Shown piece after piece: positions 7,465 to 61,559 of a stretch of DNA of 64,000 bases. The position numbers were made by a program, and so were the translations under genes. This stretch comes from a virus (Duplodnaviria; Caudoviricetes): the IMG/VR virus record IMGVR_UViG_3300028886_000051. One strand, written 5' to 3'. The notes below the pieces were generated by a model. That model saw only the letters and a program-made list of their open reading frames with translations, did not search any database and was not told the DNA's origin. Position 1 is the first letter of the stretch; the number at the start of each line of letters is the position of its first letter.

Positions 7465-7842
7465 ATGAACAGAGATGAATTATTGAAAAAAGAAATAATG
7501 TCAAAAAAGGATACAATAAAAAATGCGTTCTTGAATCGTCTTACTTATGATAAGTGGGATAAGAAATCGCCTGTTTACGCCTATAATATTGTGCTATCTG
7601 AGTTTGAAAAAATTGATGATGTTGAACGAATTGAATTTTTATTACATCCATTCAATATCACACCATATGTAGTTTACTTTTCAAATAAAGAAGATTTAGA
7701 AGCTTATAAATGGGTTCATGATACTATTGAAAAAGAAATAGATGATAGGATTGCAGAAGGTTTTAAGGATCATATTAGTGATTTTGTTGATTGCAAAGAC
7801 TTATATTCAGGAGACTGTGCAGTATTTGCAGTCAGTCATTAA
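7465..7842 (+). CDS. Hypothetical protein
   Basis: AAGGAG RBS then ATG 7465. Confidence 0.6.
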   Translation: MNRDELLKKEIMSKKDTIKNAFLNRLTYDKWDKKSPVYAYNIVLSEFEKIDDVERIEFLLHPFNITPYVVYFSNKEDLEAYKWVHDTIEKEIDDRIAEGFKDHISDFVDCKDLYSGDCAVFAVSH

Positions 7843-7904
7843 AATCCAAGTAAAGACGGATTTCTCGTCCGTCATTTATATGAAATGAAAGAGAGGTATA
7901 AAAT

Positions 7905-8459
7905 ATGGTTTATGGAGTATTTGGTGGTTGTTATAGTGATTGGTATGTAGTTGGTTATTTTAACAATCGTCAAGATGCGGATAAATATTGCTGTGTATGT
8001 GGTGATGGTGATTATTATGTAAAACCGTTAAAAGATTTAACTGATGAAAAAGATTTATCAAAAGTATCATTAAAATACCATCATAAAGTTTTATTTGATT
8101 ATAAAGATGATGAAAACAGATGGGTTATGAGAGAAGAACCTGAAAGATACAATTGCTATATTGATAATGATTTAAGATGTAATAGTGTAAGACAAGGAAC
8201 ACTATGTAGAAATAATTGGGTATGTTTTAGTATAAATATTGACCATGATGATAGAAATTTAGCAGAAAAAATTGCTCAAGACTATTTAGCTGAACTTCGT
8301 TCTTATGGAGATGGAAAAATTTATGAAAAGAATATTGAATTGATGAATGATAAATTCGCAGCACCATTCAAGGAAAAAGAGAGAATAAGAAAAGAAGAAG
8401 AAATTAGACAAAAAGAAATTGCAGAATTAGAAAGATTAAAGGCTAAGTATGATGCATAA
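7905..8459 (+). CDS. Hypothetical protein
   Basis: ORF with GAGG RBS. Confidence 0.7.
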   Translation: MVYGVFGGCYSDWYVVGYFNNRQDADKYCCVCGDGDYYVKPLKDLTDEKDLSKVSLKYHHKVLFDYKDDENRWVMREEPERYNCYIDNDLRCNSVRQGTLCRNNWVCFSINIDHDDRNLAEKIAQDYLAELRSYGDGKIYEKNIELMNDKFAAPFKEKERIRKEEEIRQKEIAELERLKAKYDA

Positions 8460-8496
8460 TAAACGACAGTTTCTTGCGAAGATTAGAGGTGATTAA

Positions 8497-8778
8497 GTGG
8501 TATTAATAAATATAAATGACAACTGGGAAGAAGTTAGAGATTTGGAAGATGTTTCTAAAATAATCAGAGAATATTTTAATGAAGATTTGGCTTATGAAAT
8601 GGATAAGATGATTCCTGAACATACAGACGAAGAATATCGGGATTTAGAATGGCAATTAGAGGAAAAAGATGGCGATATTACTTCATTAGAAGATGAAAAT
8701 GATACTCTTAAAAATCGAATTGAGATTTTAGAAGATAAAATAGAAGAGTTGGAAGAAAAATTAGATAAATGCAAATAA
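8497..8778 (+). CDS. Hypothetical coiled-coil protein
   Basis: GAGGTG RBS, GTG start, heptad pattern. Confidence 0.65.
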   Translation: MVLININDNWEEVRDLEDVSKIIREYFNEDLAYEMDKMIPEHTDEEYRDLEWQLEEKDGDITSLEDENDTLKNRIEILEDKIEELEEKLDKCK

Positions 8779-8818
8779 CAAGAAGCCATTATTTTATGTG
8801 GAGATTAGGAGGTAGAGA

Positions 8819-9082
8819 ATGAAAGTAATTTTACAGTATACAGCTTGTATGTCTGACGATAAGAATGTTTTTGGAGTATTAGCTAGAAACAATGTAGAAA
8901 TTATTGAAACGAAACAAAAGCAGTTTTCAATTTATCCACTTGTCACAATTAGAGTCAAAGATACAAATACACTTAATAAAATTTTAGAGCAGTTAAATGA
9001 AAAATCTGTTTACGGGGTTAGGATTGCAAAAGTGAAATCAGACAAATCATTTATTGAGAGATTGAAGATGTTATTTAAATAA
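8819..9082 (+). CDS. Hypothetical protein
   Basis: AGGAGG RBS. Confidence 0.65.
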   Translation: MKVILQYTACMSDDKNVFGVLARNNVEIIETKQKQFSIYPLVTIRVKDTNTLNKILEQLNEKSVYGVRIAKVKSDKSFIERLKMLFK

Positions 9083-9135
9083 ATTCACAAAAATCTAAAC
9101 TTTCATTGGGATTTAAAAAATAGGAGGATTAAGAT

Positions 9136-9924
9136 TTGAAATTTGAGAATACAGAGGTATGGGGATTTGAACACGCATTTAGGGGTTTAAGAAATCCAAA
9201 AAATTCTTGGAATAGAAGTGATAGTAAATTTAATGATTATTATGACGAAGAACGAGCAGATGTTGATTTTGATGAATTATTAAAAGTATATCCTAATGCA
9301 TATATACATCATTGTAACATTAATGGATATTATACAGATATTATTGGTGAAGCGGATTTGAAACTTGCTCAGACTCTTATTAAAGCAGGAAATGAGCATA
9401 GAAAGTTTATGCGACAGATTTTTGTATCGGTTGATATTACAGCTCCTCTTTATTGGTGGAAAGAATTTGATACTTATAAAGTAGGAACGGTTGCGAACTC
9501 ATCGAGTACAATGCACAAGCTTGCTACAACACCAATTACATTAGATTGTTTTGAGATTGATGATTATGACAGAAATTTATCTCTTGCTGATAATCCAAAG
9601 GATGATGACGGGTTAGATAATATTTCAACATTTGAAGAGGATATTATTTATGTATTAGAAAATATTCGTCAGAAGTATCTTGAAACAAAAGATAAGAGAT
9701 ATTGGAAAGAGCTTATACGTTGGCTACCTGAATCATGGTTACAGAAGCGTACAGTTACAATGAATTATGAAAATGTTCGTAATATGTACTTTCAGCGTAA
9801 AAATCATAAGCTTACAGAGTGGTCAGAGTCATTTATCAAATGGGTAGAAACACTTCCATACGCAAAAGAGTTGATTATGTATGAGGCTAAATATGTTAAA
9901 ACATGTCATGATAAGCGAATCTGA
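9136..9924 (+). CDS. ThyX-like (flavin-dependent thymidylate synthase fold) protein
   Basis: H.KFMRQI, APLYWWKEFDTY, LPESW...TMNY, RK.HKL.EW; nucleotide-metabolism context. Confidence 0.65.
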   Translation: MKFENTEVWGFEHAFRGLRNPKNSWNRSDSKFNDYYDEERADVDFDELLKVYPNAYIHHCNINGYYTDIIGEADLKLAQTLIKAGNEHRKFMRQIFVSVDITAPLYWWKEFDTYKVGTVANSSSTMHKLATTPITLDCFEIDDYDRNLSLADNPKDDDGLDNISTFEEDIIYVLENIRQKYLETKDKRYWKELIRWLPESWLQKRTVTMNYENVRNMYFQRKNHKLTEWSESFIKWVETLPYAKELIMYEAKYVKTCHDKRI

Positions 9925-10096
9925 ATATGAAGAGTATTGTAGATTAAAAGAAAAAGATTCACCTAAACTCAAAAAGCGTGTTAATTATAGAAAATATTGT
10001 CCAGTGTGCGGTTACTTAGTTGACGACTTAGTGCCGCCACAGAAATATTGCGATAGGTGTGGACAAAGGTTATGTACAAGTTTATTTGAAATATAG
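9881..10096 (+). CDS. Small zinc-ribbon protein
   Basis: CPVC...CDRCGQ. Confidence 0.65.
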   Translation: MRLNMLKHVMISESEYEEYCRLKEKDSPKLKKRVNYRKYCPVCGYLVDDLVPPQKYCDRCGQRLCTSLFEI

Positions 10097-10104
10097 GAGA
10101 TAAT

Positions 10105-10317
10105 ATGAGAAATCCGAATAGATTATATAATTTCTATAGTGAAGTGACTCGGCTACATATGACATATATGCCAGATTGGAGAGCAGGACAATTCTGGTTA
10201 AATTTCTTGTTTTGGTTACAAAATGAAAAGAGAATTGATGGCTTTATTCCAGAAGAGGATAAAATGCTTACATATTTAAAAGAATATTGCGGAGAAAAGG
10301 AGGAAGTAAATGAATAA
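10105..10317 (+). CDS. Hypothetical protein
   Basis: AGGAG RBS; MRNPNR...PDWR.GQ. Confidence 0.65.
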   Translation: MRNPNRLYNFYSEVTRLHMTYMPDWRAGQFWLNFLFWLQNEKRIDGFIPEEDKMLTYLKEYCGEKEEVNE

Positions 10318-12325
10318 ATTTGATATTACATCAAGGGTTGAAGAACTCAATAAAGCTTCCGAAGCTTATTATAATACTGGGCAGCTTATTATGAGTGATA
10401 CTGAGTTTGATAATAAGCTTGAAGAATTAAGACAGTGGGAAGAAGAGACTGGCATTGTGTTATCTAACAGTCCAACACATAATGTTGGTGCAACAGTATT
10501 AGATAATATAAAAGAAGTTACTCATAAAACACCAATGCTTTCACTTGAAAAGTGCCACAGCACAGAAGAGATTATTAAATTTGCAAATAATCATAATCTT
10601 GTGGCTTCTGTAAAGCTAGATGGTTTAACTGTACGTCTTACTTATAAAGATGGTAATTTAGTTTTAGCAGAATCCAGAGGGAATGGTACAGTCGGATCTG
10701 ATGTGACCGAACATGTTAAGCAATTCACCAATGTTCCATTACATATTGATAAGGAAGGAACTTATATAATTGATGGTGAAGCACTGATTAAATTAGATAA
10801 TTTTGCTGAGATTAATACAAACGGAAAATATAAAAATAGCCGTAATTTAGCAGCAGGCACATTATCAAGTCTTGATACATCAGTTGTAAAAGATAGAAAA
10901 TTATCTTGGTACGCTTGGGAAGTCGTTGATGGTTCTAATATTAATGGGTTTCAAAAACAATTACTTGAGGCTGCTGATTTTGGTTTTGAAATAGTTCCAA
11001 ATGTTTTGTTGAGTAAAGTAAAAAAAGATAATAATTTTCACGATGACAATTTGGCAATAGAAGCCTGTCTACATCTTATTTTTAATATTGCTGATAATAA
11101 TAAGTTACCTCAAGATGGTGTTGTATTTAAGTTTGATGATGTAGCATACGGAAAATCGCTTGGTAATACTTCACATCATTTTAAAAATGGTATTGCTTAT
11201 AAGATATTCAATGATTCAGTAGAAACAGAATTGGTAGACATTGAATGGACAATGGGCAAGACAGGAAGTTTATGTCCAACTGCTGTGTTCAACCCTGTGA
11301 AAATAGAAGGAAGTACAGTAAATCGTGCATCACTTCATAATATTTCAATAATGAAAGAAATTTTAGATAAACCTTGGGTTGGTCAGCATATTGGTGTGTT
11401 TAAGGCAAATCTTATAATTCCACAGGTTCGATGGGCTGAACAAGGTAAACCTTTTAAGGACGGCAATGAAGAAATGTATAATGAATTAAACATTCCTGAT
11501 AAATGTCCTATTTGTGGTCAACCTACAAAGATTGTTAAAGAGAATGATTCAGAAGTTCTTTACTGTACTAACGAAGACTGTAAAGGACGATTACTTGGTC
11601 AACTTACACACGCTGTATCAAAATCAGCTCTTAATATTTCGGGTTTATCAGAATCTACTCTCGATAGATTAATTAAGCTTGGTTGGGTAACTTCTATTAA
11701 AGATATTTATCATTTATCAGACTATAAAAACCATATGATTGTACTTGATGGTTTTGGTAAAAGGTCTATTGAAAAACTTCTTAACTCTATTGAAGAGTCT
11801 CGTAATACAAGTCTTGAGCGTTTTCTTTATAGTCTATCAATTCCGTTGCTCGGCAAATCAGCAAGTATGATGATTGCAGATTCTGTTGATTATGACCTCG
11901 ACACGTTTATTAATGAAATGACAATTAAAGGCGCAGAATACTTTAGATATTTGCCTGGTGTTGGAGATTCGTTAATAAACTCACTCAATATTTATTGGAA
12001 AAATCATTACTCAGACATACTTCAGTTGGCAAATGAGTTTACGTTTGAGACACAGAAATCCATTATGTCAGAAACCACAAATGAATTAGAGAATAAGACT
12101 TTTGTTATTACAGGAAGTGTAAAACATTACCAGAATCGTGATGCTCTCAAAGCTGATATTGAAGCTCATGGTGGCAAAGTCGTAGGAAGTGTATCTTCTA
12201 AAGTAAATTATCTTATTAATAACGATATCAACTCAACTTCATCTAAAAATCAGAAAGCAAAATCGCTTAATATACCAATTATAACAGAAGAAGAGTTTAT
12301 TTCTTTAATTGAGGGGAGTTTGTAA
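10310..12325 (+). CDS. ligA: NAD-dependent DNA ligase
   Basis: MLSL, KLDG, SRGNG, DGVVFK, zinc finger, HhH and C-terminal BRCT. Confidence 0.97.
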   Translation: MNKFDITSRVEELNKASEAYYNTGQLIMSDTEFDNKLEELRQWEEETGIVLSNSPTHNVGATVLDNIKEVTHKTPMLSLEKCHSTEEIIKFANNHNLVASVKLDGLTVRLTYKDGNLVLAESRGNGTVGSDVTEHVKQFTNVPLHIDKEGTYIIDGEALIKLDNFAEINTNGKYKNSRNLAAGTLSSLDTSVVKDRKLSWYAWEVVDGSNINGFQKQLLEAADFGFEIVPNVLLSKVKKDNNFHDDNLAIEACLHLIFNIADNNKLPQDGVVFKFDDVAYGKSLGNTSHHFKNGIAYKIFNDSVETELVDIEWTMGKTGSLCPTAVFNPVKIEGSTVNRASLHNISIMKEILDKPWVGQHIGVFKANLIIPQVRWAEQGKPFKDGNEEMYNELNIPDKCPICGQPTKIVKENDSEVLYCTNEDCKGRLLGQLTHAVSKSALNISGLSESTLDRLIKLGWVTSIKDIYHLSDYKNHMIVLDGFGKRSIEKLLNSIEESRNTSLERFLYSLSIPLLGKSASMMIADSVDYDLDTFINEMTIKGAEYFRYLPGVGDSLINSLNIYWKNHYSDILQLANEFTFETQKSIMSETTNELENKTFVITGSVKHYQNRDALKADIEAHGGKVVGSVSSKVNYLINNDINSTSSKNQKAKSLNIPIITEEEFISLIEGSL

Positions 12326-12876
12326 TGCTTATATTAACTGGAAAATCTGCAAGTGGCAAAGATACTATAACTAATATCTTAATAAAAAAATATGGCTTTA
12401 AAAAATTAATAACATATACAACTCGCCCAATGAGAAAAAACGAGATAAATGGTGTTACATATCATTATATTTCAGATGAAGAATTTCTTAATAAGGTTGA
12501 AAATGGATTTTTTGCTGAATGGAAAAAATATAAAACAACTCAAGGAATTTGGTATTATGGTTCTGCTATAGAAGATTATGCAAAATCAGACAATAATACA
12601 GTAATAATACTTACACCTAATGGTATTAGAGATATTAAAAAATTAGGCTTTAAAGATATAAAAATTTTTTATATCTTTAGCGATAAGGATACTATTAAGA
12701 AAAGACTAAGTATCAGGGGAGATAATCCTGATGAAGTTATTAGACGTATGGAAAAAGATGATGAAGATTTTAAAGATATAACAAATTTAGTTGATGAAAC
12801 TATAATGAATACCTTTGACAGTAAAATATCATCAGTTGTAAATGAGATTCAATCACTCTACAAAAAGAGAATATAA
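12325..12876 (+). CDS. gmk: Guanylate kinase
   Basis: GKSASGKD P-loop, TTRPMR..E..G..YHY, YYG. Confidence 0.9.
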   Translation: MLILTGKSASGKDTITNILIKKYGFKKLITYTTRPMRKNEINGVTYHYISDEEFLNKVENGFFAEWKKYKTTQGIWYYGSAIEDYAKSDNNTVIILTPNGIRDIKKLGFKDIKIFYIFSDKDTIKKRLSIRGDNPDEVIRRMEKDDEDFKDITNLVDETIMNTFDSKISSVVNEIQSLYKKRI

Positions 12877-12894
12877 CTATATATAATAAAGGAA

Positions 12895-13779
12895 GTGATA
12901 ATAATTAGAATCCAAAGAATAATTTCTATATTAATATGTATTTGTTGGTCAGCTATATTGGGAATAGCTTTAACAGATAAATCTAGTAATAAGTCAACAC
13001 TAACAACTAATAATAATATTAATATAGAAGAAACAAAATTGCCAATTGCAGGTATTAGTAAGTATATAACGAATATAGTATCAAATCCAAATAGCTTACA
13101 AGAGTCTGAGCCTGAAATTGACGAATCCGAACAAGCGACTGAAGATTGGCACATAGGTTATACAAATGCTTATGTAAACATCAGAGCTGCCCCATCTATA
13201 AACTCAGAAGTATATACAGTTTATCCATACAATATGGAAATATCTTATACACCATATGATTCAGAATGGTATGAAATAAAATATGGTGTCTCAAAGGCTT
13301 ATATAGCCCTTCAATTTGTTTCAGACAATAAAATAGACTACGTTGAAATTAAAATGCCTAATAATAATGGCTTTAAATCCTATATGGATTATAGAACTAT
13401 AACAAATAAAGAAAGCTCACAATATTTGTTACAAAAAAGTGCTTACTCTGGTAATTATGGTATTAGAGAAGTGAATGGTAGATATTGTGTGGCATTAGGT
13501 ACATATTTTAATTTGGAAATAGGAAGATACTTTGATTTGATCTTAGAAGATGGCACAAGCTTACCTTGTGTAGTTGGTGATATTAAAGCTAATAAAGATA
13601 CATTATCTGATAACATAACAACAGCTCATAATGGATGTGTGAGTGAGTTCATTGTAGATACAAACGAACTTCATAATATTGCCAAGATAAATGGTAACAT
13701 TTCTTATTGTGAAGAAAATTGGGGATATAAAGTTGTAGCGATTAGGATATATGATAAAAATTATTTTAAGGAGGAATAA
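12895..13779 (+). CDS. Membrane-anchored SH3b cell-wall protein
   Basis: N-terminal hydrophobic helix; VNIRAAPS SH3b motif; C-terminal domain resembling 3D/RlpA-type folds. Confidence 0.6.
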   Translation: MIIIRIQRIISILICICWSAILGIALTDKSSNKSTLTTNNNINIEETKLPIAGISKYITNIVSNPNSLQESEPEIDESEQATEDWHIGYTNAYVNIRAAPSINSEVYTVYPYNMEISYTPYDSEWYEIKYGVSKAYIALQFVSDNKIDYVEIKMPNNNGFKSYMDYRTITNKESSQYLLQKSAYSGNYGIREVNGRYCVALGTYFNLEIGRYFDLILEDGTSLPCVVGDIKANKDTLSDNITTAHNGCVSEFIVDTNELHNIAKINGNISYCEENWGYKVVAIRIYDKNYFKEE

Positions 13780-13783
13780 TGAG

Positions 13784-14041
13784 ATGGAAACAAGGATAGA
13801 AAAGAAGATAAAGTTTAAAAACTTTGAAGAAGTTGCTAACTTTATTGACGATATGACTTCGGTAAATACTGACGTAGATGTGATTAGCAATAAATACATA
13901 GTATCAGCAAAATCTATTATGGGTTTATTAACATTAGATTTAAGTAAGATCTTGGACATCTATTTTTATGGTAATGAAGAATCAGAGGATTTTAAGAAAT
14001 TTATTGACATAGTTGAAAAATATGCACCAGAAAGGAATTAA
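13784..14041 (+). CDS. HPr-like protein lacking His15
   Basis: VSAKSIMGLLTL Ser46 motif; no His in the protein; AAGGAGG RBS. Confidence 0.8.
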   Translation: METRIEKKIKFKNFEEVANFIDDMTSVNTDVDVISNKYIVSAKSIMGLLTLDLSKILDIYFYGNEESEDFKKFIDIVEKYAPERN

Positions 14042-14045
14042 TTAT

Positions 14046-14701
14046 ATGTATATGATAAATGATAACCATATAGATTTATATAACGTTACAGTAGGCGATT
14101 GTATAGATTTATATGAATTTAAAGGTATAGTTTCAATTCTTAGTGATGGAATGTTGCTTGGATTTGAAAAAGATAGCTGTTTTGAGGGTAAATAGGGTAA
14201 AAATATGACAATATGTACAGATAAATGTACTTCTTGTGTTAATGGAGAGTTAATACAGAAGTCAAGGGCAGATATAAAAATACGTTGTGAAGCAAAAGAT
14301 AAACTTCTACCTTATGGGTGTAAAGTAGAATGTGAATTTTTTGAAAAGAAAAAGGGAGAATAATATGGGTGTAAATATAATTATATTAATTTTAATTGGT
14401 ATTTTTCTTTTAAATTGTTTATTTTGTTTTGCAATGTGTAAAGCAGCATCAGATTTTGATGATATTTCAGATTTAAAAGAAAGTGAGGAAAATAATTATT
14501 TTACCAATAATGACAACACATTCATTAGCTAGAGAATTATTGGAAAAGCCTGACGGATTCGTGACTGCAACTATTGAAGGTAAAGAATTTGCAGTCACAG
14601 GATTCCGAAGAATGGCAACTTGTGCAAATTATGATGATACAAGTTTATATTGGACTTTAGTGTTAAGTGAATGCGAAAATAATAAAAATAAAAAAGTATG
14701 A
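14046..14701 (+). other. Cluster of short hypothetical ORFs, including a small membrane protein (~14365-14532)
   Basis: Tightly packed short ORFs with RBS-like sequences. Confidence 0.45.
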
Positions 14702-14791
14702 TGTGTAAAACCCTTGTAAAATAAGGGTTTCAGAGGTTTAAAATTACAATGAAAGGTTGATTTCTTGTGGAATTAAGAAAGGAGATAAAAT

Positions 14792-17017
14792 TTGAAAGTA
14801 ATTAAAAGAGATGGTCGAAAAGTTGATTTTGACCGTAACAAAATTATAAAAGCGGTTCTTGCTGCTTTCAATGAGGTAGATGGTGAAATTACCACAGAAG
14901 CAAAAAGAAAGGCTACAGTAATTACAAATCACATTGAATCATTAAATAAGAAGTCTATGAATGTTGAAGGTATTCAGGACATTATTGAAACGATGCTTAT
15001 GGATGGTAAGCGCAAAGATGTTGCTAGAGCATTTGTGATTTACAGAAATGACAGGACGAGAGAAAGAGAAAAACATAGCGACATTGTAAAGCGTGTTATG
15101 AAAAGAGTAAATGCAACAGATGTTCAGAACGCTAATGCTAATGTGGATGAAAAGAGTTTTTCTGGTAGAGAAAAAGAAGCGTCTGCCGATGTAGGAAAGA
15201 CCATTGCATTAGATTACGGTGGATTAAGCAAAGAGGTCGCACAGGCTCATAAAGATATGCTTATATATCAACATGATTTGGAAAAAGCAATTTATGGAGT
15301 GCATAATTGTCTTAATCTTGACTTTGGAGAAATTTTTACATACGGATTTAAGACACGCAATGGTGATGTAAGACCTCCAAAATCTTTCAGTACAGCTTGT
15401 CAGTTGGTTGCAGTAGCTTTTCAATGTCAGAGTCAGGTTCAGTTTGGAGGAGTTGGAAGTATTCATTTAGACTATGACTTAGCTCCTTTTGTAAAAATGA
15501 GTTTTTCAAAACACTTTAAAGATGGACTTAAATGGGTTGAAAATGAATCAGAAGATTATATTAATCATGTTCCAAAGTCTATTGGTATAGAAGATTTAGA
15601 AGCTAAATCACATAAAAAAGCATATGAATATGCTATGACAATGCTTGAAAATGAAGGTCAACAGTCAGCACAAGGATTATATCATAATTTAAATACTCTT
15701 GAATCACGTCAAGGCTCGCAAGTGCCATTCACTAGCATCAATCTTGGACGAGATACTTCACCAGAGGGAAGATTGGTTACTAAATGGATTATGAATGCAA
15801 GTATTGATGGTATTGGTGAACATCATTTAACAAGTATTTTTCCTATTAGTATTTTTCAATACAAAAATGGTGTTAATGCAAAACCAGGAGATCCAAATTA
15901 TGATTTGAAACAATTGGCATTAAAATCTATGTCAAAAAGAATTTATCCTAACTGGTGCAACGGAAATTGGTCACAGGCACATGAAGATGAAGATGATCCA
16001 GATACATTTTTCTCAACAATGGGCTGCCGTACTTTAGTTGGATATGACCGTCATGGGTTAGGTTATATTCGTCAGGGAAGAGGTAATAATGTACCAAATA
16101 CAATTATTTTGCCTAAGCTTGGCATTGAATATGGTATTTGTCTAGGCAAAAGAGATAAAGCAGATTTAGATGGATTTTGGAACGGTCTTGAAAATGCTTT
16201 ACAGTTATGTGAAAAAGGATTACTTGAAAGGTATGAATTAATCAAAAAACAGTCACCAAAATCAGCACCTTTCATGTATCAGAATCACACTATGAAAGGT
16301 TCAAGAGATTGTACTGAGACAGTAGAAAATGCAGTGAAACATAATACTCTTGGAATTGGATTGATTGGCGTTGCTGAAATGTGTGTTGCCTTATTTGGTA
16401 AAAATCATGCAGAGGATGAAAATATACACGCATTTGCATTATCAGTAGTTAAGAGAATATATGATTATGCAAAAGAAGCCAGTGAAAGAAATGATTTGAA
16501 TTTTGGATGTTATTTTACTCCGGCTGAAGGACTCTGTAGAACAGCATTAAAGGCATTAAGAGAACAATATGGTGTGATTCCAAATGTTACAAGCCATGAA
16601 TATCTTACTAATTCAGTGCACGTGCCAGTATGGCAGAAAGTTTCTATTTATGACAAATTAAGAATTGAAGCTCCATTTACAAAGTATGCAACATCAGGAT
16701 GTATCACTTACATAGAACTTGAATCTACTTTTGTACAGAATACAAAAGCTATAGAAGATATTATTGATTATGCTTTTAATGAGTTAGATATTCCTTATTT
16801 AGCATTTAATTTCCCAATTGATAGTTGTTTAGACTGTGGATACCAAGGTGAATTTAATAATGAATGCCCTCAGTGTGGAAGCAAAAACATTCAACAGTTG
16901 AGACGTGTGACAGGATACCTCACTACGGACTACCGCAATTTTAACGAAGGAAAACAAGCAGAAGTAGAAGAAAGAGTAAAGCATAGTGCATATACAAGCT
17001 TTGGAGATGAGAAATAA
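14792..17017 (+). CDS. nrdD: Anaerobic (class III) ribonucleoside-triphosphate reductase
   Basis: ATP cone VIKRDG, MGCRT, TPAEG, CxxC..CxxC, RRVTGYL glycyl-radical loop. Confidence 0.97.
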   Translation: MKVIKRDGRKVDFDRNKIIKAVLAAFNEVDGEITTEAKRKATVITNHIESLNKKSMNVEGIQDIIETMLMDGKRKDVARAFVIYRNDRTREREKHSDIVKRVMKRVNATDVQNANANVDEKSFSGREKEASADVGKTIALDYGGLSKEVAQAHKDMLIYQHDLEKAIYGVHNCLNLDFGEIFTYGFKTRNGDVRPPKSFSTACQLVAVAFQCQSQVQFGGVGSIHLDYDLAPFVKMSFSKHFKDGLKWVENESEDYINHVPKSIGIEDLEAKSHKKAYEYAMTMLENEGQQSAQGLYHNLNTLESRQGSQVPFTSINLGRDTSPEGRLVTKWIMNASIDGIGEHHLTSIFPISIFQYKNGVNAKPGDPNYDLKQLALKSMSKRIYPNWCNGNWSQAHEDEDDPDTFFSTMGCRTLVGYDRHGLGYIRQGRGNNVPNTIILPKLGIEYGICLGKRDKADLDGFWNGLENALQLCEKGLLERYELIKKQSPKSAPFMYQNHTMKGSRDCTETVENAVKHNTLGIGLIGVAEMCVALFGKNHAEDENIHAFALSVVKRIYDYAKEASERNDLNFGCYFTPAEGLCRTALKALREQYGVIPNVTSHEYLTNSVHVPVWQKVSIYDKLRIEAPFTKYATSGCITYIELESTFVQNTKAIEDIIDYAFNELDIPYLAFNFPIDSCLDCGYQGEFNNECPQCGSKNIQQLRRVTGYLTTDYRNFNEGKQAEVEERVKHSAYTSFGDEK

Positions 17018-29188: not shown

Positions 29189-32100
29189 TTATAATGGTCT
29201 ACAGTTATTTTTTTGCATACCTAATTTTTCTAAAGAAGTAGCGATTTTACTTGTTACATTCTTTGTTAATTGATTCTGCATATTTTCGAACTCTTTAGCA
29301 AAGTTCTTATCTATATTTCCCTGAACTGTTATTCCAGCATCTATATTTATGATAGGTGTAGAACTTCCAACCTTAGTAAAATTATTTTGTGGCAACTTAA
29401 AAGTCTTAACAAAATCTTCTAGTTTAGGCGTAATTTCAGGAAGATTTGATACAAGTTTATCGAAAGACTTGGTTTGCTCTAATGATAAAACTCTTTCGCC
29501 TTTCTTTGCAAATATAGTAACATCTTCACCAAAACTTTGAGCTAATTTATTAGACTTTCCGTTAACCACGCCACCTTCTGCAAACATTGGAAATGGAAGA
29601 TATTTATTTATTCCTGCTGAAGGTAAATTACCTTGTCCAGATTGTTCACCTAGTTTCTTACGAATTTCGTCACTAAGACTTCTAATACCATCTGCGATTC
29701 CATTGCTGATTTTAGATATAGACGTGCCAAGAGCGACACCAGCACCTATTCCAGCACCAGCACCTATTCCATTAAGTTTATCAAGCTCATATCTAAGTCC
29801 ATTTACTGAACTACTAGCCTTATTTGCAGCATCCTTAACGTTGTTAATAGAATTAACTGCACCATTACCATAGCCACTATTTAAAGCTGAACTTATCCAT
29901 TGTTTTAAATGAATAGACTCAACAGAAGTATTATAAAGATTTTGCCTAACTTTAGAAATTGCTTCATAAACTCCAGAATTATTACTAATATTAAATGCTG
30001 ACATTATAGTGCTTGCCATATTATTAGCCTGTGTCTGAACACTTTGAATATTAGTTTTAATTCCATTTAATTTAGCAGTAAAATTACTTGTGCTAGAATT
30101 AAGTGCCTGATTATATCCTGCGATAGCACTAGAACCTGTACGCCAAGGATTAATAATACAAGAATTAATAGATACATTTTGCTTTTTCTCTAAATCTAAT
30201 AAAGTTTTAGAAATCTCATTGGCTCTTGATTTGGCTTCGGCAATAGCTTTCTTTAATACTTTGTCTTCATTTTTTAAAGAATCCTTTAAAGCTTCGGTTC
30301 TTTTTTCTTGTGCATCCTTATAATCTTCTAACTCTTTATCCAAAGCATCGCTACGAGTATCTACAGCATGGTCATATTTATAATCTTCCAAATCATTAAC
30401 AGCTTCAGCAAGTTCAGCTTCAAGTTTTTCACGTTCAGCAATAGTAGCAGCATCATCTGACCCCATCATTGCATTGATTTTACGTTTAATAGAAGAAATT
30501 TCTTTTTCTTTTTGAACTATATTCTTCTTATATTCATATAAATCTTTTTCGGCTTGTAATGACTCTTTTTGCTTATTTATTAATTCTTCATAAGCATCAG
30601 TTTCATCGTTAATTGCATCAATAGCCTCATTAACTCTCGCTTCGGCTAAATCTAATATAGCCTTTTTAGCTTCTTCAGCAGTAGATATTGATGAAAATTG
30701 TGAATCTCTTAATTCATTCAATTTATCAGTGTACTCATTAATAGATACCTTGCCTTCTGAATATAATTTGTCAAGATATTTAATTTCTTCATTATATTGA
30801 GAAACTTCATTTCTTGCCAATTCATATTTTTGAGCTAATAAACCAATTCTAGTAATTGATTCAGAAGTAAATTTACCATTTGAAGTAACTGTATCTTTCT
30901 CTAATAGACTATTTAAACTGTCTAACTCACTTGAGATAGAAGAAAACTGGTCTTTAATCTTTTCAAGAGTATTCCAATGCAATTCATTAATAGATTTCTG
31001 AAAATCTTTTAAGTCATTTTCACAAGATATAATAGAAGAATCTACATCTTGTAATGCATCATACATATCTTTCCATTCATTTGAACCATATTCAATACCA
31101 TTTCTTAATGCAGAAGTCATTTGAGAAGTAAGTGTATCACGTTCTTCTTTAAGTATCTGAATTTGAGATTTAGTTTCGGTTATTAATTCTTCATAGAATC
31201 CTTGACCAACATTTTGTTCCTGAGTTTCTAATAAACTAACAACATCTTTAATTTTAGATTTATTTTTATCTAAGATGTTATACATAGAATCAAAATCATC
31301 TTTGATGTTGTTGAATTTATCAACTTCAAGATCTTTTAATGTCTGTTTTAACTCTATTAATTGAGAATTAATATCATCTACTTTATCAGCCCAAGTCTGG
31401 TAATTCTTAATTGCATCAGTAACCTCGGAATTTCCATTACCAATAAATTTATCTATTTCCAGACCACCTTCTTTGGCTAATCCTTTATATTGTTCGGGAA
31501 TTTTAGCCAAATACTCATCAGCCATTCTAGTATATAAATCACTGACTTGTTCTAAGGTGTTCATTTTAGATTTATTGATGTCTACTAAACTATCAACTAA
31601 AGCATTTTTATTGGCTGAACCCTCTAACTGTTCAATATGTTTTTGGGTATCGTCAATTAATGTGTTTAAATGATTAAGTTTTTCTTCGGCAAAATCTATT
31701 ATATCAATAGAATCTTTAGAATTAGATTTAGAGGAATCTGAATTAGAATTACTTGCTCTTAAAGTCGCATCAGGGTTTGTATCAACTCCTAAAATTGTTT
31801 TCTGAGTTAAATCAGATATTTTTTTAGAATCACTTTTTCGTTTATTCAAGACTTTATCTATTGTATCTTGAGATATTCCATTATTTAAAGCTTGAACCTT
31901 CCATGCTTCTAAAGCTGCTTCACTAACTGCATTATAACTTTCTGCTAATTCGTAATTTGTACTAGACAAATAAGTCATCGCATCTGCTTCAGTATTAATG
32001 CCTGTTACATTATCAATAAGTCCTTGTTGCATTTGAGCTTCCATTGCAAGGAGTCTTGCTTTGGTTAATTCTTTCATTGATTCTGTATCAGTTTTTAAAT

Positions 32101-34318
32101 TACCATCTTCATCAATTAAATAATCTAAAAATTGAGAGCCATTAGATAATATGGCTTGATACTGATCAACAGTAATATAACCAGTCTCATTATATTGATC
32201 TATTGTATCCATTAAGCTAGTATAAGCCGATTGTATATTATCAAGTTGGTCAGATAATTGACCAAGTTTAGTTGAATTATTAGTATCGTCTTTTAATTTA
32301 AAAATATCTGATGGAGAATATTCAAAACTCTGAAAAGCTTGAGAAGTTTCATCTCTAAAAAGTTTTACAATATGACTTGCAGCTTTTTTAATAGATTCTT
32401 CACCTTGGTTATCATACAAAGTTTGAGCTATACCTTTTAATAATTTTTTAGCTTCATCACTGGATAATAAATCTTGTTCAGTTAAATCTTCTCCAAATTG
32501 TTTTTTTAAAAGTTGTATTGCACCGTCCATACCAGAGAAGTGCATAAGGCGACCAACTACATCTGCCCAGTTTCCATTATTGTCATAATTTTGACTATCG
32601 TCAACACCAGCATAAATTCCTTGAACAAATGTATCACCAATTTGTCGTCCCTGAGCATCAAACTCTTTCAATTCATCATCGGTAACTTTTCCATCATCAG
32701 CATATGCTTCTGCAAGAATCTGATTAATATATTCTTCAACAGTATCTTTTGATAAGAATGTTCCATTTGGTAGAATAGGAGTAAATGCAACTTCCCAACC
32801 ATTGCCATTTAAGTCTTCTCCAAAACGTTCAGAACCACCAAATACAGTATCAATAGAACCTACTTCTGGATCATAATCCCAACTTGCTAATGCATCTGCA
32901 TAAGTTTGTTTAAGTTCGTCAGACCAATTAATAATGGTACGTTTATCCATATCGACATTGCCAAATACAGTTTGAATAGTACCATTCTTAATTTGTTCAG
33001 CATAATCATCGAGACCCCAGTCGGAGATTTTTTGATATTCTTCTTCAAGTCCTTCTATTATGCCATTAGAATTAAATGCCTGTAATATATCTTCATCACT
33101 AAGTCCATTTTCGATTTTCGCTTTTAATGCCTTACCTATATCCTTGAAGCTATCTTTATTTAAAATTCTAGTGATATTTTGGTCAGCCCAAGAGTCGAAA
33201 TCAATATATTTAAGATAAGATAGTTGTTCATTTAATTTGTCTTGTACTTCCTTTGAAGACATCTGTTCAGGATAATTTTTATTAATATCTTGAATAAGTT
33301 TAGAAACTTCAGTATATCTTGCTTTAATTATTTCTAAATCTTTTTCAGCAATTATTTCTAAAGCTTTTTCAGCCTTTTCATCATCAAGATGAATATCATT
33401 TATAAATCCTAGCCCTTTACTATTAATATATTTATTATATTTATCTTTAGCTGTAGAGGAATAACTATTTATTTTTTCAAGTTCATCAATAGCGTCTTTA
33501 AGTTTTTCATAATCAGTATCTTCATGTCTTGCTTTTTCAATTCTATACCATCTTTCAAAACCTAAAGTAGTCAAATCAGTTGGTTTCCATTTTTTAGCTT
33601 TACCTTCTTTACCTTTATTGGTAGTAAAATCCAAGTCATCTTTTTCAATTAAAGTTTGAACATAATCTTTACCAACTTGATCTTGTGAATCTTTAAGGAT
33701 TTTTTTCTGTGATTCTAACTGACGATTAATTTCTTTAAGATTTTCAATCTCTTGCTTATCAACATAAGTAATATTATCTAAATTCTGAATCTCTTCAATA
33801 CGTTTCTTATTATCTTCAAGAGAAGTATTAATATCTTCGATTTTTTGCTTGTTGGTCTCAAAAGTTTCATTTAAATTTTCAAGTTTTTTATTTAAATTAG
33901 CAATCTTATCAACCTTTTTATTGTATTTTTCAATACCTTTATTAATTAATTGAATGCCAGAACTAATAATAGCTCCAATCACCATACCACCAAACATATT
34001 TAATACATCTGCACCAAGAGTTCCAAAGAAATTCTTGATTGACGCTCCAATGTTTTTTAAGCTAAATTTGGTAGCGTTTAATTGCTCTTGGTATGCCTGA
34101 AGATATGTCTGACCTTCTTTAAGGATGATGTTACCATTACGAATTGATTTAGCAAACGAAATAGATTCTTTAGATGCCTGTGGATATTTCTGGATTAATG
34201 ATTCTAATTCGATTTCTTTATTATATAAATCTTTATTATTTAAAAAATCCTTTGTATCGTTATTTATATCTATAATTTTCCCAAAACTAAAACCATTTTT
34301 ATTATCATAATGTGCAAG
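29189..34318 (-). CDS. Tape measure protein, exon 3 (1709 aa)
   Basis: Frame is open for 107 codons upstream of ATG 33997 without a start codon, beginning exactly after the predicted omega-G at 34319; coiled coils; FAEGG..GERVL C-terminus. Confidence 0.85.
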   Translation of the reverse strand, partial: LAHYDNKNGFSFGKIIDINNDTKDFLNNKDLYNKEIELESLIQKYPQASKESISFAKSIRNGNIILKEGQTYLQAYQEQLNATKFSLKNIGASIKNFFGTLGADVLNMFGGMVIGAIISSGIQLINKGIEKYNKKVDKIANLNKKLENLNETFETNKQKIEDINTSLEDNKKRIEEIQNLDNITYVDKQEIENLKEINRQLESQKKILKDSQDQVGKDYVQTLIEKDDLDFTTNKGKEGKAKKWKPTDLTTLGFERWYRIEKARHEDTDYEKLKDAIDELEKINSYSSTAKDKYNKYINSKGLGFINDIHLDDEKAEKALEIIAEKDLEIIKARYTEVSKLIQDINKNYPEQMSSKEVQDKLNEQLSYLKYIDFDSWADQNITRILNKDSFKDIGKALKAKIENGLSDEDILQAFNSNGIIEGLEEEYQKISDWGLDDYAEQIKNGTIQTVFGNVDMDKRTIINWSDELKQTYADALASWDYDPEVGSIDTVFGGSERFGEDLNGNGWEVAFTPILPNGTFLSKDTVEEYINQILAEAYADDGKVTDDELKEFDAQGRQIGDTFVQGIYAGVDDSQNYDNNGNWADVVGRLMHFSGMDGAIQLLKKQFGEDLTEQDLLSSDEAKKLLKGIAQTLYDNQGEESIKKAASHIVKLFRDETSQAFQSFEYSPSDIFKLKDDTNNSTKLGQLSDQLDNIQSAYTSLMDTIDQYNETGYITVDQYQAILSNGSQFLDYLIDEDGNLKTDTESMKELTKARLLAMEAQMQQGLIDNVTGINTEADAMTYLSSTNYELAESYNAVSEAALEAWKVQALNNGISQDTIDKVLNKRKSDSKKISDLTQKTILGVDTNPDATLRASNSNSDSSKSNSKDSIDIIDFAEEKLNHLNTLIDDTQKHIEQLEGSANKNALVDSLVDINKSKMNTLEQVSDLYTRMADEYLAKIPEQYKGLAKEGGLEIDKFIGNGNSEVTDAIKNYQTWADKVDDINSQLIELKQTLKDLEVDKFNNIKDDFDSMYNILDKNKSKIKDVVSLLETQEQNVGQGFYEELITETKSQIQILKEERDTLTSQMTSALRNGIEYGSNEWKDMYDALQDVDSSIISCENDLKDFQKSINELHWNTLEKIKDQFSSISSELDSLNSLLEKDTVTSNGKFTSESITRIGLLAQKYELARNEVSQYNEEIKYLDKLYSEGKVSINEYTDKLNELRDSQFSSISTAEEAKKAILDLAEARVNEAIDAINDETDAYEELINKQKESLQAEKDLYEYKKNIVQKEKEISSIKRKINAMMGSDDAATIAEREKLEAELAEAVNDLEDYKYDHAVDTRSDALDKELEDYKDAQEKRTEALKDSLKNEDKVLKKAIAEAKSRANEISKTLLDLEKKQNVSINSCIINPWRTGSSAIAGYNQALNSSTSNFTAKLNGIKTNIQSVQTQANNMASTIMSAFNISNNSGVYEAISKVRQNLYNTSVESIHLKQWISSALNSGYGNGAVNSINNVKDAANKASSSVNGLRYELDKLNGIGAGAGIGAGVALGTSISKISNGIADGIRSLSDEIRKKLGEQSGQGNLPSAGINKYLPFPMFAEGGVVNGKSNKLAQSFGEDVTIFAKKGERVLSLEQTKSFDKLVSNLPEITPKLEDFVKTFKLPQNNFTKVGSSTPIINIDAGITVQGNIDKNFAKEFENMQNQLTKNVTSKIATSLEKLGMQKNNCRPL

Positions 34319-34408
34319 CTAATAATAAATATAAACTTTGTATTTATTAATCTGCTTTAATTTTAGAAAAAATAATGGTATAATAAATAAAAAAGGAGAT
34401 TTTATAAT

Positions 34409-34885
34409 ATGAATCATAAACCAAGAGTAATGTGTTGTCCTAACTGTAAAAAGAATAATAGAACACATAATTCATCGAAATATGTAACGCCTGCTGCATA
34501 TTTTTCAGCATATATTAATAAAGAAGATACATATTGTAAATATTGTGGTTGTCGTTTGTCGCCTATGAATATTGACGTGTTTGAATTTGGAATAATTGCA
34601 GATATATCAGGCGACCCATCATTTATTATAGCAATGGATGATCTTAAACAAAAAGACCCAATAGAATTTCAACTAAAAATGTCACAATTCAAAACTCAAT
34701 TACAACAACAAAAGGGTAATGAACAAATAGAAAATAGTAACTTAATCCATTGTCCTAAGTGTAATTCAACTGCAATTACAACAGGTGCTAGAGGAGTCAA
34801 TAATTTCTGGGGACTTCTTGGTGCAAGCAAAACTGTTAATCGTTGTGGTAACTGTGGTTATACTTGGAAACCGAATAATTGGTAG
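34409..34885 (+). CDS. Zinc-ribbon protein, antisense cargo inside intron 2
   Basis: CPNC, CKYC, CPKC, CGNC; TG-N-TATAAT at 34376-84 and AAGGAG RBS. Confidence 0.85.
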   Translation: MNHKPRVMCCPNCKKNNRTHNSSKYVTPAAYFSAYINKEDTYCKYCGCRLSPMNIDVFEFGIIADISGDPSFIIAMDDLKQKDPIEFQLKMSQFKTQLQQQKGNEQIENSNLIHCPKCNSTAITTGARGVNNFWGLLGASKTVNRCGNCGYTWKPNNW

Positions 34886-35045
34886 AAGTAGAAGAAGATA
34901 ACCGTCCTAAATGTCCAAATTGTCATTCAACCAACATAAAAGCTATAACTGGTACTGAACGAGCAATGTCTATTATGGGGTTGGGTATCTTCAGCAAAAA
35001 ATCAATAAGGGTTTTAAATATCTGAACTGTAAGTATACTTGGTAA
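34879..35045 (+). pseudogene. Frameshifted remnant of a paralogous zinc-ribbon C-terminal module
   Basis: PKCPNCHSTNIKAI...LGIFSKK / INKGFKYLNCKYTW with 1 nt missing in an A run. Confidence 0.7.
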
Positions 35046-35070
35046 ACATGTGTACTAATTATCTTATCAT

Positions 35071-35101
35071 AAAAGAGAGTGGCAATATTACACTCTCTTT
35101 T
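35071..35101. terminator. Bidirectional terminator after the cargo genes
   Basis: AAAAGAGAGTG-loop-CACTCTCTTTT. Confidence 0.8.
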
Positions 35102-35116
35102 ATAAGGTGTACACAT

Positions 35117-35277
35117 AAAGAAAACACCTAGCAATAACTAGATGTTTTCCATACAGTTTATAACCATTGGAATATATTCAGTTTCACTAAAAATCAGTGC
35201 GAATACATTTGCCCCAATGTACAACGAAAGAAATAACACAATGTCAAATCTTTCGCAACAGTCATATTTGTTTTTGT
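35117..35277 (-). ncRNA. Putative ~160-nt small RNA inside intron 2
   Basis: TTGACA(35312)-N17-TATTAT(35289) promoter; terminator GAAAACATCTAG...CTAGGTGTTTTCTTT; no ORF with an RBS. Confidence 0.55.
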
Positions 35278-35316
35278 ATTATTATAATACACTATATGCA
35301 TTAATATGTCAATAGG

Positions 35317-35512
35317 TTAATTAATATCATATACAATTTTAATTATATCCTTTATGTATTTCATTGTGTCGTCATCTAAATCACACATTTTCTCAGTTAA
35401 TCGTGCCTTAGAAATACATCTTGCATGTTCTACTTTTATATATGACACTTTTGACATAGCTGGATGTGAAAATTCTATTTGTGTATCTAATTTTTTCTTT
35501 TTATTTCCATTC
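35317..35512 (-). pseudogene. C-terminal half of a MazF/PemK-family toxin
   Basis: KKKLDTQIEF...SYIKVEHARCISKARLTEKMCDLDDDTMKYI..IIKIVYDI; in-frame stops upstream. Confidence 0.65.
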
Positions 35513-36067
35513 TTATCATATGCAGCGGTTCAAAAGAGTAGTTGTTTAACTGCTCTTTTATATTATTCCCATTTTTTAATTATTTATCTACTCTGTTTTA
35601 CAAAGTCAGCAGTAGAAGAGTAATAATCTCACTATTATTTCGCATCGTATAGTTACGATTGAACTTTTTCACTATCACACTCAATGATAGGGTTGTGACT
35701 ATACCTTCGTGGGTTATAATATAACCTACGCCCTCTTGGTAGTCGATGGGAGCAGCACTTACCTATATAGGCAGTACGCCTCTCTGCTGATTAGATCATC
35801 GTGCTACATTATGAGTCACACGAGTCGTTCCAGTTCTTATCTAAGTCTCACGAATCTTAGAGGCTGCGTAGTTCACACACAGTCATATCAGAGGTCTACA
35901 GTGTAGCATCTGTAGTTGATTTTACTTATATATCTTCCTTGTATATACAAGTTCTTTGTGTTTTATCCAAGGATTCTCACCTCGGCACGAGATATATTCT
36001 GAGCCTTGCACATATTGCTTACTACATTTATATGTGTATATAACCTTGTAAATTATATACTTGCATA

Positions 36068-36784
36068 ACCCAGCTTTTTCCCTATTATAGCACCTATAGG
36101 GGTCAATAAGGTTGGAAGTAAACCAACTTTATCAATAATTTTTGTTAATAGATTTAATATACCACTAAGTGATGATATGGTATCTTTTACTAAATCTGTA
36201 TCAATAAATTTTTGCCAAAAATCTTCAACAGTAGCAGATAATACTTTGATACGTCCATCAATAGAATCAACTATAGCTTCATTTTCTCGTAAGGCTGAAC
36301 CTTCAGCATCACCAAGACTTTCCATAACCTCATCAATTTTTTGATAGTTTTTAAGCAACGCTGCTACATTATTGGCTCTTGTTTTACCTGCAACAAGTTC
36401 AAGGGTGGCTGCTTGTGAAGAATCGCTAAGTTTGTCCCACGTTGCACCCAACTCTTTAACTATCTGTGTTGTTGACTTAAAGGTATTGTCATTGAGCATA
36501 ATATCAACACCAGTCAATGATTTTAACTGTTCACGAAGTTTTGAGGTGGATTCACATAAGCCATCGGTATCCTCACCCATATCTTCTAATTCAGCTTTTG
36601 CTCCACGAAGTCTTAAACTAAATACCTTTAATGTATTACCTGTATTTTCACTATTTTGAACGATTTCATTCATAGCTGTAATTAAGGCAATACTTTCTTC
36701 AAATGAATTATTTCCAGTTTCAAGGGCAGAAGCAGAACGTTTCATAGCTTCGCCGATGTCTGTAGCAGAGAGTGCAAACTTATT
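36068..36784 (-). CDS. Tape measure protein, exon 2 (239 codons)
   Basis: NKFALSATDIGEAMKRSASAL...GVDI...AGKTRAN tape-measure core; both borders in phase 0. Confidence 0.9.
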
Positions 36785-61474: not shown

Positions 61475-61559
61475 CGTAGAGTATGAGAGTCGAACTCATA
61501 AGCCAAATTAATGACCGACAGATTAGCAATCTGCTCCAATACCATTATGGGAACTCTAC
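61475..61559 (-). tRNA. tRNA-Ser(GCT)
   Basis: GTAGAGT/ACTCTAC acceptor stem, GCAGA-TTGCTAA-TCTGT anticodon arm, long variable arm, GTTCGACTC. Confidence 0.9.

Follow-up and report, generated by a model that had tools for sequence, protein, structure and literature searches.

Exons and introns of the tape-measure gene

The window analysed here, a 64,000-nt stretch of the 145.7-kb uncultured virus record IMGVR_UViG_3300028886_000051 (a gut phage), carries on its minus strand a single tail tape-measure gene that is divided into three long frames of 1535, 239 and 1709 codons, 3483 codons in total. Our subject is the second of the two gaps between these frames, which we refer to as intron 2. A putative group I ribozyme occupies its first ~480 nt and is followed by unrelated genes, here called the cargo, which lie between the last hairpin of the ribozyme and a 3′ tail of ~25 nt. 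The parts of the gene on which the analysis depends are as follows, with coordinates given in the window:

37790-36785, minus strand: intron 1, the first gap, with a LAGLIDADG_2 gene at 37645-36995 (Pfam E 5e-29)
36068-36784, minus strand: exon 2, 239 codons; its last six bases, 36073-36068, are the exon strand of paired region P1
36067-34319, minus strand: intron 2, 1749 nt; it begins just past the U.G pair and ends with the terminal G
29189-34318, minus strand: exon 3, 1709 codons plus a stop; its earliest ATG lies 107 codons in

Exon 2 matches the Pfam profile PhageMin_Tail at profile positions 87-197. The junction across intron 1 was validated by eight related contigs (L002-L009), in which the homologues of exons 1 and 2 are contiguous and in one frame. 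Three further relatives, L115-L117, differ at the intron 1 site: the same endonuclease gene is present in L117, a 400-codon open reading frame (ORF) takes its place in L115, and the intron is absent from L116.

Protein similarity between exon 3 and its relatives begins at codon 1 in all groups of copies, 107 codons ahead of any ATG, while the DNA just upstream of exon 3 is unrelated between the groups except for one word at 34342-34335. The frame opens at 34318, immediately after a TAG that supplies the intron's terminal G, and if intron 2 were not spliced the reading frame would end at a stop after 4 codons. A first-pass annotation, made by a model from the sequence alone, had already proposed a cargo-carrying group I intron at this position; direct inspection of the sequence reproduced its coordinates and sequences, its three exon lengths and its startless frame.

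Predicted ribozyme, splice sites and docking helix

The comparison set for intron 2 comprised about 15 copies, either of this intron or of a sister intron, all at one site, from gut phage contigs and Lachnospiraceae genomes. The exact R-to-S pattern of intron 2 (P7-P3′-P8-J8/7-P7′, where J denotes a joining segment) matches 84 viral contigs, with a Q-like word upstream and a hairpin in the P8 position that varies with compensation. Nine of these contigs carry the same RNA, 91-94% identical over window positions 36079-35570, and in all nine the ribozyme follows an exon 2 homologue at the same codon, although the exon 2 proteins are merely 30-41% identical. The DNA similarity begins 12 nt upstream of the 5′ splice site and ends ~10 nt past the last hairpin. 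A second pattern retrieved more distant copies from two Lacrimispora genomes (L104, which is identical to virus L028, and L105), a Eubacterium genome (L106/L111), another virus (L103/L109) and the cultured strain Coprococcus ammoniilyticus H1_22 (L107/L110). The copy in H1_22 occupies about 341.9-347.6 kb of NZ_JAOQJS010000004.1, on the minus strand within a prophage. The presence of copies in these bacterial genomes indicates that the hosts are Lachnospiraceae.

The elements of the RNA, all on the minus strand, were placed as follows:

35896-36060, minus strand: peripheral 5′ domain, with a P1 extension hairpin (36060-36036), a three-way P2 (35997-35928) and a hairpin at 35915-35896
35999-36013, minus strand: internal guide, consisting of the P10 guide (36013-36005) and then the P1 strand (36004-35999)
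35985-35967 and 35951-35938, minus strand: inner hairpins of P2; P2a covaries, and P2 covaries by inspection
35697-35894, minus strand: catalytic core, with P3-P8, two extra hairpins and J8/7
35894-35890 with 35736-35732, minus strand: P3, which covaries after a one-column alignment shift
35882-35864 and 35861-35840, minus strand: the extra hairpins, between P3 and J3/4; both covary
35833-35830 with 35790-35787 (P4′/Q), minus strand: P4, 4 bp, invariant
35823-35799, minus strand: P5, which covaries
35784-35750, minus strand: P6/P6a/P6b; P6 and P6a covary
35744-35740 with 35701-35697, minus strand: P7, which covaries
35730-35708, minus strand: P8, which pairs in every copy after shifts
35707-35702, minus strand: J8/7, adjoining P7′
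35587-35690, minus strand: P9 domain, with P9 (35690-35672), P9.1 (35659-35644), P9.2 (35630-35618) and the last hairpin (35616-35587)
34319-34342, minus strand: 3′ tail, in which a spacer of 15 nt separates the docking word (34342-34335) from the terminal G (34319)

Pairing was counted for twelve helices, set from the window coordinates, in a MAFFT alignment of ten intron copies (A2). With the proposed partners 98.2% of the cells pair, as opposed to 30-46% when the partners are slid by 1-3 columns; the same displacement reduces the pairs that have changed on both sides from 30/66 to 2-5 and the covariation score from 0.379 to 0.04-0.08. None of 500 shuffles matched the observed pairing or covariation values. 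These counts support P1, the inner P2 hairpin, P5, P6/P6a, P7, P9, P9.1, P9.2 and the last hairpin, all six pairs of which have changed on both sides among the copies. P3 occurs as four different sequence pairs once the distant copies are shifted by one column, and its covariation together with that of P7 points to the group I pseudoknot; for pair counts that tolerate such shifts, the random controls were too permissive to serve for single helices. A second CCUCU (35864-35860) was considered as the P3 strand and rejected, as only the first aligns with covarying partners (L028, L103, L105, L106).

Apart from the two extra hairpins, the P3-P8 and P4-P6 domains follow the canonical order, and the Q, R and S words are what we take to be the classical group I consensus. 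The P7.1/P7.2 pair of subgroup IA is not present in intron 2. Helix mapping and covariation located Q, P7, P8 and P9 where they had been predicted, at ~35640-35800. At the level of sequence comparison, these results confirmed that intron 2 has the anatomy of a group I intron.

The splice sites are defined by two pairings with the guide. The last six bases of exon 2 pair with 36004-35999 and place a U.G pair at the 5′ splice site. All six P1 pairs form in each of the 10 copies and the U.G is invariant, while two inner pairs vary, one of them on both sides, and exon end and guide vary jointly in four combinations. At the other end, the guide at 36013-36005 is a perfect 9-nt complement of 34318-34310, the bases that directly follow the G at 34319. 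This P10 pairing, of 6-9 bp among the copies, spans 9 bp in the window, 8 bp in group B, 7 bp in L106 and 6 bp in group C. L103 also forms 7 bp, through two strands that are completely different in sequence, and L105 pairs at 7/8 positions with a single mismatch. A G precedes exon 3 in 9/9 tabulated copies as well as in L109, L110 and L111, and thus in all copies in which the site could be placed. Neither splice site interrupts a codon, and the predicted junction peptides of the copies resemble one another, being of the type ..KLG^LAHYD..NGF. The first-pass annotation had claimed the P1 pairing with its U.G, the 9-nt complement and an in-frame junction, all of which hold in the sequence, and had predicted that guide and exon 3 would covary across relatives; they do, the L103 pair included.

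The word shared between groups upstream of exon 3, the docking word, is a perfect 8-nt complement of the loop of the last P9-domain hairpin (35606-35599), a match attained by 0/80 windows of the cargo in the same intron. Groups B and C and the window, whose cargos differ, all have this docking pair, its tail word lying 15-18 nt ahead of the 3′ splice site. In L111 three loop positions differ, and three compensating changes in the tail word, located 27 nt ahead of the splice site, keep the 8-nt complement perfect; a 6-nt match between loop and tail in L109 is not significant alone. This is one of two long-range helices that had been proposed to bring the 3′ splice site back to the core, and its covariation supports it. 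The other (35639-35632 with 34328-34321) was unsupported and was rejected: it is AU-rich, its tail side is not conserved, and a covarying local hairpin at 35630-35618 competes with it.

A related design is found in L115-L117, the closest relatives of this phage (~86% identity over exon 3 residues 584-1710 and ~85% over exon 2). At this site (about 11.5-12.4 kb, minus strand) their core is group I-like but of another kind, and the last hairpin has the same design, with a third version of the loop accompanied by a matching 7-nt tail word. Different ribozymes, as recognised from their predicted folds, share one site and one docking design.

Other relatives are also interrupted here. L002-L009, in which exon 2 is 75-85% identical to that of the window, break off within a few codons of the intron 2 site, and past position 6700 they have gaps of ~2 kb (L002), ~4 kb (L005) or more (L009) that hold other ORFs. 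Searches of L002-L009 with the loop pattern and with the core profile (nhmmer) gave no match, and the core profile likewise gave none in L115-L117.

Cargo and its proposed turnover at a single site

Between the last hairpin and the tail, the window's copy of the intron holds the following genes, gene remnants and promoter- or terminator-like sites:

34343-35586: cargo bay, ~1.24 kb; similarity to other copies resumes at the docking word
34409-34885, plus strand (antisense to the tape-measure gene): double zinc-ribbon gene, 158 aa
34879-35025, plus strand: truncated second copy of the C-terminal zinc-ribbon module, 48 codons, without the last Cys pair (alignment A1)
35150-35119, minus strand (that of the tape-measure gene): terminator-like hairpin, by consensus match only
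35312-35284, minus strand (that of the tape-measure gene): promoter-like site, 11/12 hexamer matches to consensus
35317-35457, minus strand: remnant of a PemK/MazF toxin gene, the C-terminal third (PF02452 positions 71-108 of 109, E 4e-5), with stops upstream

Total intron length differs widely between copies at this site:

L105, a Lacrimispora genome, without cargo genes, at 2114-2641: 528 nt
This window: 1749 nt
L111: about 2.8 kb
Group B: about 3.7 kb
L109: about 3.9 kb
Group C: 5.6-6.9 kb

Although the ribozymes are near-identical, the middle of the cargo differs from copy to copy. The relatives' cargo includes ToxN/AbiQ (E 4e-43), DUF4145, DUF3800, DUF6173, a Bro-N/KilAC anti-repressor and a DUF4143/AAA_14 fragment. 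A DUF262/GmrSD_N protein, a possible nuclease scored as NsnA-like by PADLOC (E 1e-40), is found in group B and L109. Many of the relatives' cargo ORFs have no family in Pfam, PHROGs or PADLOC, and cargo genes lie on both strands. No ToxI-like tandem repeats were found beside the ToxN gene of L102. Cargo variability had been predicted for the relatives and was found, with differing gene sets and a span from last hairpin to exon 3 that runs from ~90 nt, without genes, to 6.4 kb. As the same ribozyme, 91-94% identical, occurs at the same codon of genes whose products are only 30-41% identical and with differing cargo, these comparisons support the reading of this tape-measure group I intron as a putative site of accessory-gene turnover. 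The central proposal of the first-pass annotation, an intron that serves as a site for accessory genes that turn over, was to this extent borne out by the shared site, the range of gaps and the gene sets, with splicing itself predicted from the conserved pairings.

A single cargo gene, the antisense zinc-ribbon gene, is constant. It adjoins the 3′ tail in most cargo-bearing copies examined (the window, group B, L109, L111, L115-L117 and L112-L114); in group C the anti-repressor gene stands between it and the tail, and the cargo-less L105 is without it. The family comprises 399 relatives, none of them informatively named. The protein gave only sub-threshold zinc-ribbon hits in Pfam and nothing in PHROGs or PADLOC, no nuclease or maturase family or motif was found in it, and its predicted model (predicted local distance difference test score, 79) had no Foldseek match at E 0.001 or better. 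It may be a new intron-associated factor. In L111 the module of antisense zinc-ribbon gene and docking tail occurs twice, ~900 nt apart (tails at 2030-2075 and 2935-2969; antisense ORFs at 1536-1991 and 2436-2927). The arrangement suggests that 3′ modules have been stacked by recombination, and may indicate how the intron acquires cargo.

L112, at 7499-16115, and likewise L113 and L114, have a zinc-ribbon gene next to a window-type tail and a 136-codon fragment of exon 3, with a helix-turn-helix gene, a CI-like repressor, a PIN toxin and an integrase as neighbours. No ribozyme core was found within 8.5 kb, and the loci represent either a very large cargo or a rearranged remnant. That they are instances of the zinc-ribbon gene living outside introns was rejected, since they retain the tail and the exon 3 codons.

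The constancy of this gene raises an alternative, namely that intron 2 is a conventional mobile intron whose zinc-ribbon protein is its own homing or splicing factor of a new kind, with the other genes hitch-hiking. The gene's wide association with the tail, its duplication in L111 with a tail for each copy and its occurrence beside an exon 3 fragment in L112-L114 all speak for such a role, and the core has clearly moved between distant tape-measure genes, yet the copy in the window has no known endonuclease: no ORF of the LAGLIDADG, GIY-YIG, HNH, His-Cys box, PD-(D/E)xK or EDxHD type was found in its cargo. Against it, Pfam, PHROGs, PADLOC and Foldseek reveal no family, motif or fold of a nuclease or maturase in the zinc-ribbon protein, another gene can come between it and the tail, and the intron also exists without it. 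We consider this alternative unlikely, though the least unlikely of those weighed here, and it touches only the description of the cargo as unrelated to mobility, not the reading of the intron as a cargo bay. That description, made in the first-pass annotation, stands insofar as no known mobility family was found, with no transposase or TnpB family among the larger cargo ORFs of the window and 9 relatives in Pfam (Zn_ribbon_IS1595 hits were below threshold only); it is insecure for the antisense zinc-ribbon gene.

The cargo had also been described as independently transcribed and partly antisense. The antisense orientation is evident, whereas its own transcription is suggested by consensus matches to promoters and terminators, among them 4 terminator-like sites in the cargo against 0.4 expected. 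As some of these terminator-like hairpins lie on the sense strand, trans-splicing is a live variant of the proposal. One transcript would stop in the cargo and a second would start there and carry the tail and exon 3, so that docking and P10 pairing (14-17 bp together) would assemble the ribozyme. Fragmented group I introns are known in organelles. The hairpin at 35150-35119 and the near-consensus promoter at 35312-35284 would suit two transcripts, as would a cargo of up to 6.4 kb whose genes run in both directions, and a ribozyme in two pieces would require just such a covarying docking helix. However, the promoter at 35312 precedes the terminator-like hairpin by ~130 nt, on the sense strand close upstream of the tail there are only 9/12 matches to a promoter consensus, and read-through in cis, for example by late antitermination, is simpler; IStrons, discussed below, splice in cis (PMC10690162). 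We regard trans-splicing as slightly less probable than the mobile-intron explanation.

Least likely, and in our view improbable, is that the intron is dead, with separate polypeptides (exon 3 being translated from the ATG at 33997 or elsewhere) and with ribozyme and tail as relics around an ordinary gene island: every relative found is broken at the site, gene callers begin exon 3 genes at internal start codons and decay does occur (L028/L108), but a relic is hard to reconcile with compensating changes kept across lineages in P1, P10, the core helices and the docking pair, with a terminal G and codon phase kept in all copies, and with a conserved amino-acid sequence in the 107 codons that precede the first ATG. 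In L028/L108 (virus record G010) the ribozyme is followed directly by an unrelated 766-codon frame and the 3′ splice site was not located; it may be a decayed or rearranged copy.

Assessment, known systems and significance

Several observations weigh against the reading of intron 2 as a group I cargo bay. No allele in which exons 2 and 3 are unbroken was found among 25 exon 3 relatives (proteins of up to 2000 residues were searched); L010 is unbroken and is too distant for alignment across the junction. The cargo contains the sense-strand terminator-like hairpins described above, and the cargo-less L105 has no clear docking pair, with a match of only 5 nt. Within the core, P4 is only 4 bp long and never varies among the copies, so that it gives no covariation signal, the minimum-free-energy z-score is a modest -1.7, and the two covarying hairpins between P3 and J3/4 are in an unusual place; to our knowledge, no group I subgroup described so far has helices there. 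Finally, the Rfam group I model RF00028 gave no match to the window, to a 4.7-kb segment or to a 541-nt cut-out, either at the gathering threshold or at E ≤10.

A search with group I covariance models had been put forward as a check on the annotation, and on this point the outcome was negative at every threshold. The same model also failed to detect intron 1, and it was silent on the tape-measure relatives and pattern-matched loci (27 tested) with one exception. Since RF00028 misses intron 1 and typical-looking relatives as well, we attribute its silence to a limit of the model and regard it as uninformative for this class of intron, which RF00028 appears not to cover. The exception is L021:2618-2950, ~700 nt from the pattern match at 3621-3672 of the same contig, which may hold two introns. 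Elsewhere in the window, Rfam identifies a tRNA gene at 61475-61559 on the minus strand (RF00005, 49.8 bits).

Taken with these reservations, intron 2 is probably a group I-type intron that splices across a variable bay of accessory genes inside the tape-measure gene. The comparisons show how the intron is built, that its helices covary, that copies share one site and that their cargo differs; we infer catalysis, read-through of the cargo, and expression of the cargo genes or benefit from them, and envisage the following course. The first ~480 nt of the intron would fold into P1 with its guide, the P2 domain, the P3-P8 core and the four P9 hairpins. The slot between this ribozyme and the ~25-nt tail would tolerate foreign DNA, the 3′ end having been displaced by insertions into one tolerant site. 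Transcription would run through the slot, after which two pairings, one between the docking word and the last P9 hairpin's loop and one between the start of exon 3 and the guide, would bring the 3′ splice site to the core. Exons 2 and 3 would then be joined in frame, to give, with exon 1, one tape-measure protein of 3483 residues. The genes in the slot would have their own signals, in some cases antisense, and could be gained and lost by recombination without harm to the host gene; turnover that is harmless in this sense would make the intron a bay for accessory genes, largely toxin- and defence-like.

More broadly, a lineage of phage group I introns may have become a dedicated slot for gene islands, taking loads from ~0.1 to more than 6 kb, spliced in cis or from two transcripts, with genes swapped between phages either with the intron or inside it and with the zinc-ribbon gene possibly a new factor. 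To this wider scheme we give even weight for and against.

The closest known arrangement is that of the IStrons CdISt1 and BcISt1, which have a 5′ group I ribozyme and genes before a distant 3′ splice site, across which they splice in cis; their ribozymes belong to subgroup IA2 and are detected by Rfam (PMC4227781, PMC10690162). Intron 2 shares with IStrons the 5′ ribozyme, the genes ahead of a far 3′ splice site, the prospect that splicing makes the insertion harmless, and an occurrence in Firmicutes. It differs in what is carried. The cargo of an IStron is an IS200/IS605 or IS607 transposon (tnpA, tnpB) that moves the element, whereas no transposase was found in the intron 2 copies scanned. 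These occupy a single fixed site with changing sets of toxin, defence-like and uncharacterised genes, and their cargo is bridged by a docking helix that covaries.

Group I introns have been described in tape-measure genes of prophages from the Bacillus cereus group (TMP-IVS1, 2 and 3), where they are compact members of subgroups IA1 and IA2 with at most an endonuclease gene or its remains (PMC2504315). As here, different introns occur at the same site and many lack a working homing endonuclease; unlike intron 2, none was reported with unrelated accessory genes. Endonuclease-bearing phage group I introns in general, of which intron 1 with its LAGLIDADG_2 gene is an example, resemble intron 2 in having a foreign ORF in a peripheral position and an essential host gene, and differ in that intron 2 has none of the known endonuclease families. 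A giant group I intron in hexacoral mitochondria, ND5-717, which according to the title of the source is removed by RNA back-splicing (PMC6545197), also has splice sites many kilobases apart and several functional genes inside; it is an organellar intron whose interior genes are fixed and essential to the mitochondrion, in contrast to the variable accessory set of intron 2. While group I introns in tape-measure genes are therefore already known, a full-text literature search found no published account of variable accessory or defence cargo in a phage group I intron, and BLAST against GenBank phages gave no match. Beyond the original annotation, the present analysis contributes formal pair counts, covarying P10 and docking pairs, a cargo-less copy, a sister intron of the same design and a copy in a cultured strain.

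If splicing is confirmed, intron 2 would represent a third use of group I introns besides the carriage of homing endonucleases and of insertion sequence elements: a harmless store for accessory and defence-like genes inside a gene that the phage cannot lose. Such a store would be a new kind of hot spot for islands of phage defence and counter-defence, and would account for the annotation of giant tape-measure genes in gut phages as two or three unrelated ORFs around an 'island'. A further implication would be that an entire class of introns escapes the standard group I model. For the design of ribozymes that have to connect splice sites kilobases apart, the docking helix provides a rule taken from nature, and the copy in cultured Coprococcus ammoniilyticus H1_22 makes the question directly testable.

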